Shown here piece after piece: positions 1,030-10,233 of a DNA stretch of 64,000 nucleotides (position 1 is the first letter of the stretch; every line of letters starts with the position of its first letter). Position numbers and translations under genes: made by a program. The notes under the pieces are model-generated. The model worked only from the letters and a program-made list of their open reading frames with translations. It was not told where the DNA came from and searched no databases. This DNA comes from an uncultured delta proteobacterium (GTDB lineage Bacteria; Desulfobacterota; RBG-13-43-22). The stretch lies in assembly GCA_963790475.1 (NCBI GenBank), contig CAWBOS010000012.1, forward strand, positions 544,001-608,000. The letters are read 5' to 3'.

Positions 1030-1055
1030 TTTACACCGTGTAAAAAAAATTGGCA
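1030..1055. promoter_or_regulatory. Putative sigma54 activator (bEBP) binding site, TTTACA-N3-TGTAAA palindrome
   Basis: 21/26 identical to 10208-10233; lies ~100-120 bp upstream of the sigma54 promoter at 1151. Confidence 0.55.
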
Positions 1056-1150
1056 GTTTTGTTTTTTCACTCTCCGGCAAATATTCATTTTCTTCCCATA
1101 AATTCAATAAGTTTAAAAATCACCAAAGGATTTCTACTCGTTCTATCATT

Positions 1151-1166
1151 TGGCATGATAGTTGCG
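1151..1166 (+). promoter_or_regulatory. Sigma54 (-24/-12) promoter for the kinase/receiver operon
   Basis: TGGCATGATAGTTGCG = GG-N10-GC, matches TGGCAC-N5-TTGC consensus. Confidence 0.75.
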
Positions 1167-1277
1167 AAAAGTATAAGTAAGGGTTGATTACCTTCCAGAG
1201 GGTTTTCCTTGTCCTACAGAAAAATCCATATTCCGGCGAGGGGAAATTGGGGTCGGCAAGAAATAGTCCCACGACAA

Positions 1278-3044
1278 ATGAGGAGAAACAAAAAGGGTGA
1301 GCATTATCGCCGGCTCTACCGAAAATTTGTCTTCCTGACCCTGATCAGCTCTCTCGTTCCTCTGCTTCTGGTGGGGTGGGGCATTTATATCTATTATTCC
1401 AATTTTTCAAGCGCCCGGGTTACGGACTATTTTCAGAGTCAGGTTGAGGATCACAGAAAAATTATCGAGTTATTTTTAAAGGAAAGAACTGCTGATCTCC
1501 AGCTGGTCGCCTTGACCCATTCCCTGGAAGAGCTGCAAAAACCCGGGATACTTATGAGCGTCCTAAATGCCATCAACCAGGAGGGCCAATTCTTTACCGA
1601 TTTGGGATTGATTAGTGCGCAAGGCAGACATTTAGCCTATATCGGTCCCTATAATTTAATGGACAAAGACTATTCCCAAACTTTTTGGTTTAAGGAACTG
1701 ATGGAGAAAAAAGTCTTCATCAGCGATATGTTTATGGGGTTCCGCAATAACCCACACTTTATTGTTGCCTTTTTAAGGGTCGAGGGAGATCACCGCTGGA
1801 TATTGCGAGCCAGTGTCGATACGGAATACCTTCGCTCTTTGGTTGAAAATGTTAAAATAGGCCGCACCGGCGAGGCTTTTCTTCTAAACCGGGACGGTAT
1901 TTTTCAAACCAGCCCGCGTTCCAATGGGACGATCATGGGCAAGGCCCCTTTATCCGTGGGACAATTTAAAGAAAATAGCGGGACTCGAATCCTGAGTCCT
2001 GTTAAAGGAATTGGACAACCCGCTGCCCGTCAAATCGTCGCCTTTGCCTGGCTTAAGGATCCGCAATGGCTGCTGATTGTTAAACAGAATTATTCCGAGG
2101 CCTTCAGAAGCGTCAATCATGCCAATCTGGCCACCCTGATCTTCCTGCACCTGAGTCTCCTGGGTATCGTCATTATCACGGTTATCATCACCCGAACCAT
2201 GATGAAAATCATCAGAAAACGGGATGATCAGGCCGATCAATTGAACAGACAGTTGATGCAGGCCGGAAAACTGGCCTCTTTGGGGGAACTTTCGGCCGGA
2301 GTTGCCCACGAGATCAATAATCCATTAGCGATCATTCTAACCGAGAACCAGGTTATCCGGGATTTCATCGAGGAAAAGGAAGGATTGGATGAGGAATTCA
2401 AAAAAGAACTGGAAGAATCATTGTCCCAGATCGACACCCAGGTTCAGCGCTGTAATCTCATCACCCATAATCTTTTGCGGTTCTCCCGCCGCACCGCGTC
2501 CCGGATCGAGATGGTCAACCTTAATGCCTTCTTGGGGGAAGTCGTTCAATTGATGGAAGGCAAGGCCAAGGGAATGGGGGTCCATTTCAATATCAACTTG
2601 GAAAAGGACTTGAACCCCATTCGTTCTGATCCTTCCCAGCTTCAACAGGTGCTATTGAACCTGATTACCAATGCCATTGACGCCCATGAAGGGAAGCCCT
2701 ATGGGACTATCAGTATCAGCACTCATTCCAATCTTGAAAAACAGGGAGTGGAGATCCTCGTTGCCGATACCGGATCGGGAATCCCTCCGGAAAATCTGGA
2801 GAGAATATTCGATCCTTTTTTTACCACAAAACCGGTCGGGAAGGGAACCGGCCTGGGGCTTTCTATTTCTTACAGCATCATTAAACAGTTGGGAGGCGAC
2901 ATTTCGGTGAAAAGCGAAACCGGTAAGGGGTCCCAATTCACCCTCTTCCTTCCATTTAATCGGACAGAAGATTCCCGCGACACAGGAAAAGAAAACCTTG
3001 ACCAGACGTCACCCCAAATTTCCAGGGAGGACAGAAGGAAATGA
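1278..3044 (+). CDS. Sensor histidine kinase, NtrB-like, two TM helices with periplasmic dCache-type domain
   Basis: H-box AHEINNPL, N-box [10 protein letters not shown] boxes [23 protein letters not shown] 1278 preferred over TTG 1209. Confidence 0.9.
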
Positions 3045-3464
3045 GAAGAGCCAAAATCCTATTAGTTGATGATGAAGTGGCCTTTGCCAACAATATTTCC
3101 AAATTGATATCCAAACGGGGTTATGACATCATCACGGTTTATAATGGAGAAAGCGCCGTTCAGGCCGTTGATGAACAGGATTTCGACGTCATTGTCCTGG
3201 ATTTAAAGATGCCCGGGATGGACGGCATGGCCGCTTTGAAGCTGATCAAGGGGAAGAAAGCCCGGGGTAGAAGTGATTATCCTTACCGGTCATGGCTCTT
3301 TCGAATCAGGCATTGACGGGATGCAGCTGGGGGCTTTTGATTTTATTATGAAACCGGTTCGTTTCGATGATCTCTATGAAAAGATTCGGCAGGCCTATCA
3401 AAGGAAATTAATTATTGAAGAAAGTGGAACCGGTTCTAATACCGATGGGCGGGGACGGGATTGA
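3041..3464 (+). pseudogene. Single-domain response regulator split by a +1 frameshift (possibly an assembly error)
   Basis: ILLVDDE...VLDLKMPGMDG in one frame, IILTGHG...GAFDFIMKP in the next; removing one A at 3257-3259 restores KKPGVEVIILTGH. Confidence 0.8.
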
Positions 3465-3877
3465 ATATGACTGAACCTATACGGGTTTGCCTGATCGATG
3501 ACGAACGAATCTTTGTTGAGTCTTTGACCAAGGTCCTCAAAAAAAGAGGTATGGAGGTGCGGGCGGCTTTCGATGGCCTTTCGGCCCTTAAACTGCTTTC
3601 CGTCGAAGAACCGGATGTGATTGTGCTGGACCTCCGGATGCCCGGGATGGATGGTCTGGCCGTCTTACAGGAAATACGAACCAAAGATTCCCAGACCCCG
3701 GTGATCCTGCTGACCGGTCACTTGGATATCGATCGCGTAGTCCAGGTCATGGATAAGGGAGTGGCCTTAGTGCTCTTGAAACCCTGTCCTATCGAAACCC
3801 TGGTTTCCGCCATAGAGAATGCCAGTGAATCTAAGGCCATTTCCAAAGAGGTCAACGCCAATCTCCCTAAAAGATGA
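3461..3877 (+). CDS. Single-domain response regulator (receiver only)
   Basis: LIDDE, VLDLRMPGMDG, LLTGH, LLKP. Confidence 0.9.
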   Translation: MNMTEPIRVCLIDDERIFVESLTKVLKKRGMEVRAAFDGLSALKLLSVEEPDVIVLDLRMPGMDGLAVLQEIRTKDSQTPVILLTGHLDIDRVVQVMDKGVALVLLKPCPIETLVSAIENASESKAISKEVNANLPKR

Positions 3878-3920
3878 TTAGGACCGGTGACCGATGTCCT
3901 GTTTTTCCCCTTGTTCTATC

Positions 3921-9312: not shown

Positions 9313-9323
9313 AATTTCCTCCT

Positions 9324-9887
9324 TTAGTGAATGGCTCCAGAATGGTCTATTTTTTCCAGTTTAAATCCCCACATATCGGTGAATCCCTCGGCCGTGAGCC
9401 CCAGACTCAATCCAATCACCAGGATCATGACCACATTCCAGACGGCGCCCCAGGGATTGGTTTTGATCCCTTTGTGTTTGAACGAATCCTTATATTTAAA
9501 ACCCGAATTGGTTTCTCTTATTTTCACCGGCATCGTCACCTTGATGATTTTATCCTCCAAGGTGGCCCGCTCCTTTTTCTTTAATTGTTCAGGGGTTATG
9601 ATGCCATTGGCATTAACCGGCAGCCGGTCCCCTTTTTTTACCGGTACGGCCTGCAGGCCCTCAATCTTTTCAAAGGGCCCGATCTGCACCAGGGCCGGCT
9701 TTTCTTTGGTGGCGTTTTTGAGGGTATCGGCATTAACCGCGTATCCATCCGTAGCCGCCTTGTAATAGTACCAGGCCACCATCTGCCCGGTATTATAGGT
9801 GTGGAAGGCGTAATAGTATAATCCCGCCGCCACAAGCAACCAGAATACAAACTTAATGGTCCCACGTCCTTTCGATGCTTCAGCCAT
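9324..9887 (-). CDS. Membrane protein with DVU0150-like C-terminus
   Basis: GGAGG RBS; C-terminal GLSLGLTAE..G..L aligns with GLILGLSAD..G..L of 54330..54632. Confidence 0.7.
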   Translation of the reverse strand: MAEASKGRGTIKFVFWLLVAAGLYYYAFHTYNTGQMVAWYYYKAATDGYAVNADTLKNATKEKPALVQIGPFEKIEGLQAVPVKKGDRLPVNANGIITPEQLKKKERATLEDKIIKVTMPVKIRETNSGFKYKDSFKHKGIKTNPWGAVWNVVMILVIGLSLGLTAEGFTDMWGFKLEKIDHSGAIH

Positions 9888-9905
9888 ATAATTTCCTCCT
9901 TCGAC

Positions 9906-10040
9906 TTAAGCTGACTTTTGTTTTTCCAATGTGACCCGTCTTAATACTTTTTGTTCTTTTGGCATTACGATACGCGAAATTCTTTTTCGCTGAACGCCGG
10001 ACAGTATTTTCGTATTAAGAAGCCTTATCCCTTCTTTCAC
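9906..10040 (-). CDS. Small basic protein (44 aa), first ORF after the sigma54 promoter
   Basis: GGGAGGAGGT immediately before GTG; MKEGIRLLNTK...KQKSA. Confidence 0.45.
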   Translation of the reverse strand: MKEGIRLLNTKILSGVQRKRISRIVMPKEQKVLRRVTLEKQKSA

Positions 10041-10073
10041 ACCTCCTCCCTTGAGTTTGTTAGAAAAATATTT

Positions 10074-10089
10074 TGCAAGGTCTGTACCA
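10074..10089 (-). promoter_or_regulatory. Sigma54 promoter for the TauE operon A
   Basis: Minus strand TGGTACAGACCTTGCA = GG-N10-GC. Confidence 0.75.
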
Positions 10090-10207
10090 AGCTGGGCAGA
10101 TGATCTGAATCTAATTAACAACCTGAAAACATAATATTTTCGCTTCCAGGGTCCTTTCCCTAAGGCCAGCGATGAAGGCATTTTTTTTTCGCTGGATTAT
10201 GTTCCTT

Positions 10208-10233
10208 TTTACACATTGTAAAAAAACCTGGCG
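10208..10233. promoter_or_regulatory. Putative sigma54 activator binding site
   Basis: TTTACACATTGTAAAAAAACCTGGCG, 21/26 identical to 1030-1055. Confidence 0.55.

Follow-up and report, generated by a model that had tools for sequence, protein, structure and literature searches.

A conserved sigma54-driven module that joins a TauE-family permease, stand-alone receivers and a dikinase-like enzyme in an uncultured delta proteobacterium

Why should a gene whose homologues are mostly named phosphoenolpyruvate (PEP) synthase or pyruvate,water dikinase in public records be found among genes for a permease, a histidine kinase and receivers that stand alone? The question is raised by a 64-kb stretch of the genome of an uncultured delta proteobacterium of the Desulfobacterota lineage RBG-13-43-22 (GCA_963790475.1, contig CAWBOS010000012.1, positions 544,001–608,000), referred to here as the window, in which such a cluster is present twice, as module A (1030–10222) and module B (54.2–62.3 kb). 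Coordinates are those of the window unless a contig is given, C12 being the contig from which the window is taken. The parts were called from a listing of open reading frames (ORFs) and by Pfam and NCBIfam scans, and module A is composed of two convergent operons. The + strand operon carries genes for a dCache kinase and for two receivers, one frameshifted, and the − strand operon encodes, in order, a 187-residue protein, a TauE permease, a 74-residue ORF product, proteins of 66 and 227 residues, a receiver, and an 893-residue dikinase-like protein, with the genes tightly packed or overlapping. Two convergent units, each with a sigma54 promoter, had been described in an earlier reading of the sequence (the original prediction), and all of their parts were found in place; the kinase, receivers, TauE, membrane proteins and dikinase of its parts list stand, but one receiver is frameshifted and the 74-residue 'fragment' belongs to a multi-copy small-protein family. 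Module A is real and conserved, and is more than a chance neighbourhood. The proposal that the system is undescribed needs amendment, and a version of it is known as the Desulfovibrio nitrate cluster, with mutant phenotypes reported in PMC4001038; modules of this kind are known genetically, but not biochemically.

The dikinase-like protein (3921–6602, − strand; PPDK_N plus PEP-utilizers mobile domain by Pfam) has a helical N-terminal region (residues 1–145), a PPDK_N domain (159–464; PF01326, 2.3e-76), a mobile phospho-His domain (505–576; PF00391, 9.1e-17), and a C-terminal domain spanning approximately residues 600–885. Across 46 family members there is no variation at K164, R260, E266, D267 or the catalytic H540. 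There is no Pfam match to PEP-utilizers_C (PF02896) at E values up to 0.01, and the PpsA models align only over positions 7–467 of 798, with scores under the equivalog cut-offs (NF005057, 295.2 versus 598; TIGR01418, 293.3 versus 739.75); separate proteins with PEP-utilizers_C are encoded at four loci of the genome. The AlphaFold model of the C-terminal domain (pLDDT 85.9) is mixed alpha/beta, with antiparallel strands and helices and not eight beta-alpha units, and the pyruvate barrel is replaced by a conserved domain of ~300 residues of no described family. The domain has eleven invariant residues (H641, D642, R645, H648, E649, R769, H773, N788, R807, D827, and D859) at overall identities of 31–83%, and this set, rich in His, Arg and Asp, looks like an active or ligand site.

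The C-terminal domain is also widespread, with 1128 representative clusters at E values up to 0.001, most of the listed rows corresponding to the C-terminus of proteins of 830–900 residues; another search with it yielded 477 hits, and the 120 listed all carry only PF00391 and PF01326. Foldseek comparison of the model with the PDB gave no matches at E values up to 0.001 (best 1.1e-2), and VIA-align comparison with 48161 chains gave a best Z of 5.8 and none of at least Z 8; a failed fold match of this type does not show a new fold. Sequence and profile searches of the PDB gave matches to the ATP-grasp and His parts only and none to the C-terminal domain, and a search of the ESM Atlas with the C-terminal part, with PF01326 and PF00391 left out, returned only fragments of the same family (score 0.90). 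Among 272 proteins examined one (P0240, 987 residues) has a Response_reg domain fused behind the C-terminal domain, and no fused forms of more than 1563 residues were seen among 694 candidates, which is weak evidence by the tool's own rating. A complex prediction with dikinase residues 22–893 and the 124-residue receiver, run without controls, gave no answer (score 0.00) and counts neither way.

How far the module is conserved was assessed in 78 related loci, which were fetched with two conserved peptides of the C-terminal domain and scored for gene presence by tblastn. TauE is present in 57 of the 78 (44 of 57 among loci of at least 12 kb), a receiver in 49, the kinase in 42, the 227-residue and 66-residue proteins in 39 each, and the 187-residue protein in 33. 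The gene order 187-TauE-66-227-receiver-dikinase is found again in records whose titles name Desulfobacterota, Acidobacteriota, Myxococcota and Poribacteria, and a second module type, with the 100-residue protein, TauE and DUF4881, corresponds to module B. The permease operon (the 187-residue protein, TauE, the 66- and 227-residue proteins, receiver and dikinase-like enzyme) as a conserved unit is strongly supported. The genome itself encodes nine copies of the C-terminal domain, and for eight of them the genes for TauE, kinase and receiver are no more than 12 kb away. Of the eight TauE loci in the genome, seven lie within 3.9 kb of a paralogue, although the stretches within 12 kb of a paralogue make up only 2.5% of the sequence. 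Co-occurrence of the dikinase-like gene with TauE and kinase or receiver genes, which the original prediction had put forward as the matter to check, is thus seen both across genomes and within this one. Of 401 genomes sampled from the phylum, 152 have a match (E up to 1e-10), and at the genus level the figure is 86 of 254. When the accessory gene sets are placed on the domain tree there are three changes between the A and B types versus 8–10 in the ten shuffles listed, a pattern that kinship alone can yield. Six of the nine paralogues are in two dense arrays on contig C15 (561–589 kb and 368–382 kb) together with TauE, kinase, receiver and two activator genes; one paralogue has two in-frame TAA codons, and another is a 381-residue frame with the C-terminal domain only.

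Transcription of both module A operons from sigma54 promoters that share an upstream palindrome is strongly supported. The −24/−12 elements, identified by motif scan, are TGGCATGATAGTTGC for the kinase operon (1151–1165, + strand) and TGGTACAGACCTTGC for the permease operon (10075–10089, − strand), the latter also being found upstream of orthologous operons. The 64 kb contain exactly three occurrences of the pattern TGGYAY-N5-TTGC, at 1151 (+), 10075 (−) and 54249 (+), all at the heads of module operons; 0.46 occurrences are expected by chance, and three were reached by two of 100 shuffles. In other genomes a sigma54 element lies upstream of 19 of 35 orthologous first genes, with approximately 0.01 expected per 380 nucleotides. 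The palindrome TTTACA-N3-TGTAAA is situated 120–135 nucleotides upstream of the sigma54 element in both operons, as TTTACACCGTGTAAA (1030–1044) in the kinase operon and TTTACACATTGTAAA (10208–10222) in the permease operon, and these candidate sites for an activator (an enhancer-binding protein), also from the motif scan, are the only two matches in the window at one mismatch or fewer (0.12 expected). Seven exact copies are present in the 6.34-Mb genome, and five of these lie 120–180 nucleotides upstream of a sigma54 element. The 78 related loci contain 36 palindrome sites with no more than one mismatch, of which 30 have a sigma54 element within 320 nucleotides, and the sites typically precede both module operons. 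A backwards control pattern gave no matches in whole-genome pattern searches (ten relatives).

Which protein might act at the palindrome? The window encodes neither a Sigma54_activat protein nor any other DNA-binding regulator, and all 40 PF00158 matches of the genome are outside C12:544001–608000. The earlier statement that the module has no DNA-binding output therefore holds within the window, but beside related operons there is one: in ten of the related loci an NtrC-type activator is encoded directly upstream of the permease operon, in an ORF of ~475–546 codons with the receiver first, and the three scanned (L014, L030 and L032) have receiver, Sigma54_activat and HTH_8 domains by Pfam. All ten share one clear orthologue here, on contig C15 (C15:609296–610723), with 64–87% identity and 38–44% for the next best, and its gene adjoins that of a 504-residue HisKA/HATPase kinase. 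The genome also has rpoN (Sigma54_DBD, 206.6 bits, at C12:1329945). The palindrome is a candidate site that fits this unlinked activator, as judged from sequence comparison, and because an activator orthologue and a fitting palindrome are both present, a main signalling output would be ordinary sigma54 transcription. The transcriptional logic is fairly clear, with an NtrC-type activator, the palindrome, sigma54, and an autoregulated kinase operon. We considered displacement of the activator gene by the insertion sequence copy at 10546–11907 and rejected it, as the two closest relatives (L010 and L025) also have no activator-sized receiver ORF upstream. In two other related loci a receiver is fused N-terminally to a DASS-type (Na_sulph_symp/CitMHS) anion transporter beside the module (L030:16001–18073 and L033:609–2684), and the L030 gene is in an operon behind the same palindrome and sigma54 element.

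A pattern search for the palindrome together with a sigma54 element finds five sites in the genome, those of the two module A operons and three others. One of the three precedes an acyl-CoA dehydrogenase gene, and the second precedes genes for an acetate-CoA ligase (Acs; 1000.9 bits, cut-off 657) and then an SfMCT-type monocarboxylate MFS transporter (374.5 bits, cut-off 320). The third is at an operon of DRTGG, PHP, NuoE-like, NuoF-like, and molybdopterin (FdhA/NuoG-like) proteins. The two closest relatives also have the Acs site and the site of the NuoE operon, and in a more distant genome one palindrome site precedes NuoE-NuoF genes and another a porin gene. On sequence grounds this putative regulon ties the module to short-chain acid activation and to NADH-linked formate or hydrogen metabolism. 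An anion that is small, planar, monovalent and of the carboxylate type is suggested by the co-regulation with Acs, a monocarboxylate transporter and a NuoEF/FdhA-like operon, and the regulon favours such an anion over a sulfur oxyanion. The NuoG/FdhA-like ORF of the third operon (C12:766078–767310) stops after 410 codons, inside the molybdopterin domain, which could reflect a selenocysteine TGA or a break.

The sensor histidine kinase (1209–3044, + strand; 611 residues, exact start uncertain) has dCache_1, HisKA and HATPase_c domains by Pfam, and its orthologues in L010 and L025 are 85–86% identical. It is followed by a stand-alone receiver gene with a +1 frameshift near 3256 (3041–3464, + strand, as ORFs 3041–3316 and 3273–3464; Pfam) and by a second receiver gene (3461–3877, + strand; 138 residues, Response_reg 1.8e-30). 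The two halves of the broken receiver match Response_reg profile positions 1–68 and 74–111 of 111, and the gene reads as one frame in the two closest relatives. Comparison at the sequence level identifies it as a single gene broken by one extra base near 3256, and this base is left out in the contigs of all three public runs that cover the place (X2, X3 and X4). As the gene is intact in the relatives and the base is missing in the public runs, the break is private to this assembly or strain. Two other irregularities are seen in the window, a lipid A acyltransferase present as two overlapping ORFs (29500–30391; Lip_A_acyltrans profile positions 207–295 and 22–213) and a lone 83-residue PMT_2 fragment (28073–28324); together with the receiver frameshift these hint at either real pseudogenes or assembly indel errors.

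The third receiver (6693–7067, − strand; 124 residues, Pfam), the start of whose gene overlaps the end of the 227-residue gene, has a full phospho-acceptor set (D10, D11, D54, T82, and K104), and these five residues are invariant in 20 receivers encoded upstream of the dikinase-like enzyme. The 74-residue half-receiver-like ORF (8021–8245, − strand) is a different matter: this multi-copy small-protein family has 18 tblastn matches in its own genome including itself, two of which are halves of one broken copy, and the ORF is in this position in only two of the 78 loci, those of the two closest relatives. The family core KILHIDxD...AIxLLKxxxFDLILSEP resembles the first half of a receiver. Some copies are the N-terminal portion of longer stop-to-stop frames (200–236 residues), and only three of the 18 matches overlap ordinary receiver hits.

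The TauE/SafE (TSUP) family permease (8245–9312, − strand; 355 residues, PF01925 5.2e-39) is accompanied by three small proteins. The first gene of the permease operon encodes the 187-residue protein (9324–9887, − strand), which we read as having two membrane helices and a weak MoeA_N-like loop domain (31.5 bits, cut-off 30.8), the only match in a lenient Pfam scan of the accessory proteins. The conserved, hydrophobic 66-residue protein (7704–7904, − strand) is likewise read, from its sequence, as two membrane helices. The conserved 227-residue membrane protein (7064–7747, − strand) has no match in the lenient Pfam scan, and its alignment has invariant E..EHH, H180 and PTRW, with invariant His, Glu and Asp residues on the predicted cytoplasmic part. 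Its model (pLDDT 82.7) shows a helical hairpin and a beta-sandwich that is interrupted by a two-helix membrane hairpin. Foldseek matches this model to PDB entries 3hsa and 3dcx with probability 0.97–0.98 but E values of 0.05–0.07, and VIA gives Z scores of 6.8–7.5 over ~100 aligned residues, below the guide value of Z 8, with most of 50 rows PH-like; with reserve, therefore, from alignment and model, we describe it as a putative PH-like protein whose matches are below the firm thresholds of the tools. Two further ORFs, at 935–1180 and 9906–10181, overlap the promoters, match nothing in Pfam or NCBIfam and are single-copy in the genome; they were rejected as candidates and are probably not genes. 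A simple scan found no intrinsic terminator between the convergent operons, and among 20 sequencing runs listed there was none of RNA.

Recurrence of the same core at 54–62 kb had been claimed from the outset and is well borne out, with identities between modules B and A of 41% for the dikinase (353/857), 34% for TauE (102/297) and 39% for the kinase (220/560). Module B has its own sigma54 element (TGGCATGGATATTGC, 54249–54263, + strand; motif scan) with a degenerate palindrome (TTTACAAGATGTCAT) ~150 nucleotides upstream. On the + strand it encodes a 100-residue exported or membrane protein (54330–54632; orthologues in 16 of the 78 loci), a 349-residue TauE permease (54753–55802; Pfam), a 202-residue DUF4881 protein with a lipoprotein-type signal (55817–56425; PF16222 6.6e-80), a 281-residue membrane protein without a family (56558–57403; orthologues in seven of the 78 loci), a 550-residue dCache histidine kinase (57418–59070; Pfam) and a 131-residue stand-alone receiver (59307–59702; Pfam), and on the − strand an 868-residue dikinase-like protein with the same architecture as in module A (59681–62287; Pfam/NCBIfam). 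The accessory proteins differ, being the 100-residue, DUF4881 and 281-residue proteins in module B and the 187-, 66- and 227-residue proteins in module A, and BLASTP finds no similarity between the 227- and 281-residue proteins or between the 187-residue and DUF4881 proteins. The module B receiver and the convergent dikinase gene share 22 nucleotides at their 3′ ends (59681–59702).

Several other features are near the modules. Two copies of a 453-residue DDE transposase with identical Pfam scores (10546–11907 and 15162–16523) are directly beside module A, and between them are genes for a phosphate-selective porin O/P (12528–13754) and a NUDIX protein (14426–14965), a layout that looks like a composite transposon. 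Between modules A and B there is also a 496-residue protein (18415–19905) with two receiver stretches and an HD_5/HD domain, which we read as a putative HD-GYP domain.

How might the parts of the module act together? Our tentative preference, which we regard as possible rather than probable, is that module A takes up and activates a small anion under the control of a signal. TauE and the small membrane partners would form the permease, and the enzyme would load a phosphoryl group from ATP onto its swivelling histidine as in PEP synthase. The phosphoryl group would then pass to the imported anion held in the Arg/His-rich C-terminal domain, and the anion would be trapped or activated. The co-transcribed receiver, phosphorylated by the dCache kinase of the module, would gate the enzyme or the permease, and sensor proteins would switch on the permease, its partners, the receiver and the enzyme through the C15 activator, which is encoded next to a second kinase. 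Our guess as to the substrate is a small, planar, monovalent, carboxylate-type anion, which would also fit the Desulfovibrio nitrate phenotype. As the phosphoryl acceptor we rank a small imported anion first, again tentatively, over the receiver, which we consider unlikely, and a component of the permease, which seems less likely again. A more ambitious form, which we regard as doubtful, is that the module is an ATP-driven 'anion phosphotransferase system' in which the phospho-His of the enzyme phosphorylates a small planar anion from the TauE complex and the receiver is a gate or carrier. Acetate or formate would then give an acyl-phosphate-type product, and nitrate would be a dead-end substrate whose unstable product drives futile hydrolysis of ATP to AMP; such futile hydrolysis would explain nitrate resistance upon loss of the permease, receiver or enzyme.

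Several observations weigh against uptake and activation of an anion. The phosphoryl acceptor and the binding of a small molecule by the C-terminal domain are both things that we infer from sequence. No TauE gene is within 10 kb in 13 of the 57 loci of at least 12 kb, seven of these 13 being Desulfovibrio records, and one paralogue of this genome (on contig C10) has no TauE, kinase or receiver neighbour. In one Desulfovibrio piger locus (L078) the gene of the enzyme comes after that of a dCache-containing sigma54 activator and before an MFS gene, and a second D. piger locus (L072) resembles it by ORF labels (long ORF, enzyme, MFS). The Acs link is limited to this genus, and the assembly is rated 9.68% contaminated, which calls for caution with regulon members on other contigs. 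For a single class of oxyanion, nine paralogues in one genome is a large number, the receiver fusion in P0240 favours a direct relation of enzyme and receiver, and the Desulfovibrio phenotypes would be explained equally well if enzyme and receiver were purely regulatory.

In a first alternative, which we think unlikely, the enzyme is a non-canonical phosphodonor or phosphate sink for receivers, with transfer from His~P to Asp54 or back. The C-terminal domain would dock the stand-alone receiver, and the enzyme would provide a kinase-independent input to a phosphorelay that controls both permease and transcription. His-to-Asp transfer is established phosphorelay chemistry, a competent receiver gene is directly upstream in the operon for at least 19 of 71 long dikinase ORFs (naive ORF calling), receivers are present in 49 of the 78 loci, and P0240 has its receiver behind the C-terminal domain. 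Receiver and dikinase mutants of D. vulgaris also share a phenotype (PMC4001038). However, the many invariant Arg, His and Asp residues of the C-terminal domain suit a catalytic or ligand site more than a docking face, receiver fusions are rare, in B-type modules and in D. piger the receiver gene either is outside the transcription unit of the enzyme or does not adjoin its gene, and every module already has canonical kinases.

It is rather more doubtful that the enzyme phosphorylates or regulates a protein of the permease complex, such as a TauE loop or the EHH of the 227-residue protein, and so gates transport in a PTS-like manner. The gene of the 227-residue protein overlaps the receiver gene and is kept with that of the enzyme in 39 of the 78 loci, and the protein has invariant His, Glu and Asp residues on the part predicted to be cytoplasmic; B-type and nitrate-cluster-type modules keep the enzyme without it. 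We know of no precedent for a swivelling-His dikinase acting on a membrane protein. The receiver-DASS fusions, present in two of seven Pfam-scanned loci, indicate direct receiver control of anion carriers here, and in D. vulgaris a single phenotype is shared by the knock-outs of the permease, its partner, the receiver and the enzyme (PMC4001038).

A sulfur oxyanion (thiosulfate, sulfite or sulfate) as the substrate, with the module a regulated importer of a sulfate reducer and the enzyme an accessory regulator, is improbable to a similar degree. Members of TauE/TSUP are linked to sulfur anions (PMC5840216), the genome has dsrA (615 bits versus a cut-off of 392.85), and a nitrate-cluster-type locus, L082, ends beside a NIR_SIR gene. 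Mutants of the G20 cluster are mildly sick on thiosulfate (authors' unpublished data cited in PMC4001038), but this evidence is mild and unpublished, and none of the five palindrome-linked sigma54 promoters leads to a sulfur-metabolism gene, the links being instead to acetate, monocarboxylate and NuoEF-FdhA genes. Nine paralogues, each with its own dCache kinase, suggest diverse organic ligands. Finally, that the enzyme is an ordinary PEP synthase encoded by chance beside signalling and transport genes, as the public names of its homologues and PpsA as the best NCBIfam hit would have it, is for practical purposes refuted: it is not the normal pyruvate,water dikinase that the original prediction had allowed for, since the PpsA hit covers the first 467 of 798 positions at 295 versus 598 bits, the barrel domain (PEP-utilizers_C) is absent while four other loci of the genome have it, and the synteny with TauE and receiver is kept across phyla.

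These findings have practical consequences. When the enzyme is misnamed PEP synthase, sulfate reducers and syntrophs are credited in metabolic reconstructions with a false step of gluconeogenesis, and the strong nitrate resistance phenotype in a relative bears on the treatment of oil-field souring with nitrate (PMC4001038). The window adds a defined candidate activator site, an unlinked cognate activator and a regulon that connects the module with acetate activation and with NADH-linked metabolism of formate or hydrogen; the TTTACA-N3-TGTAAA motif and the regulon come from the present analysis, and site, activator and regulon together point to concrete ligands and conditions. If the enzyme does phosphorylate the transported anion or the receiver, this would be a new activity for swivelling-histidine enzymes, and an anion phosphotransferase system, if true, would be a new coupling of transport, signalling and activation.

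How does the module compare with known systems? PpsA and pyruvate phosphate dikinase have the same order of ATP-grasp and phospho-His domains, and the catalytic His and nucleotide-site residues are kept, but the enzyme described here has an unrelated domain of ~300 residues in place of the TIM barrel and an extra helical N-terminus of ~145 residues. Rifampicin phosphotransferase, PigC/RedH and phenylphosphate synthase are swivelling-His enzymes with non-pyruvate acceptors, in which an ATP-grasp and phospho-His core is likewise joined to another acceptor domain, although the domain order or the acceptor domains differ; the enzyme scores 190 bits with the rifampicin phosphotransferase (RPH) model and 199 bits with RedH, in the ATP-grasp region only and with cut-offs of 999–1350. 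Enzyme I and HPr of the PEP-dependent phosphotransferase system (PTS) provide a works-like analogy only, in that a phospho-His swivel domain feeds phosphoryl groups toward a permease-bound substrate. The mobile domain matches Enzyme I weakly (2hro, E 5.9e-4; 2wqd, E 5.4e-3; TIGR01417, 2.3e-05), but the donor in the module is ATP via ATP-grasp and not PEP, there is no HPr, EIIA, EIIB or EIIC, and the permease is of the TauE type. AtoS and AtoC are the best or near-best models for the module kinases and the C15 activator, and the regulon likewise includes short-chain acid activation; however, the scores are far under the equivalog cut-offs (231 versus 646 and 472 versus 714), the sensor domains differ, and no ato genes were seen.

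Two sets of Desulfovibrio genes are more directly comparable. Several TSUP permease operons of D. vulgaris have sigma54 promoters and enhancer-binding proteins, with substrates described as unknown (e.g. the DVU0151 regulon DVU0150-0146, and DVU0110/DVUA0057 with DVU0132-0133; Kazakov et al. 2015, PMC4641369), and these resemble module A in having a sigma54-driven TauE-family permease; a term search of the available text of that paper found no mention of the dikinase-like enzyme. TSUP functions in sulfate reducers are reported not to be predictable (Marietou et al. 2018, PMC5840216). In the limited literature collection searched, only the 2014 study of Korte et al. was relevant to the nitrate cluster genes, no literature on DUF4881 was found, and nothing pertinent was found that joins TauE, PEP synthase, response regulator and sigma54, or on syntrophy with G20. 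According to that study (Korte et al. 2014, PMC4001038), the nitrate cluster (DVU0251-DVU0245 in D. vulgaris and Dde_0597-Dde_0605 in D. alaskensis) confers nitrate sensitivity and encodes TauE with a hypothetical and a PtxB-like protein, a kinase and a receiver, a PPDK_N/mobile-domain protein (DVU0246 or Dde_0604) and a phosphatase; D. vulgaris grows unimpaired in 100 mM nitrate when the gene for TauE, the hypothetical protein, the receiver or the dikinase-like protein carries an insertion; the authors' guess is a leaky thiosulfate transporter, and the phenotype is given without biochemistry. The L082 locus, from an uncultured member of the Desulfovibrionaceae, has the nitrate-cluster architecture (DUF169, TauE, hypothetical, Phosphonate-bd, kinase, receiver, dikinase, and DSP phosphatase), and the C-terminal domain of its dikinase is 36% identical to that of the window (E 1e-34). 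There are differences, in that the window kinases are of the dCache type where those of the nitrate cluster are sCache/PAS, modules A and B have by Pfam none of the PtxB-like binding protein, DSP phosphatase and DUF169 present in L082, and the accessory proteins are others (187/66/227-residue, or 100-residue/DUF4881/281-residue). The nitrate cluster and modules A and B are alike in bringing together TauE, a kinase, a stand-alone receiver and a barrel-less PPDK_N/mobile-His protein in one cluster, and in having a small hypothetical partner of TauE.

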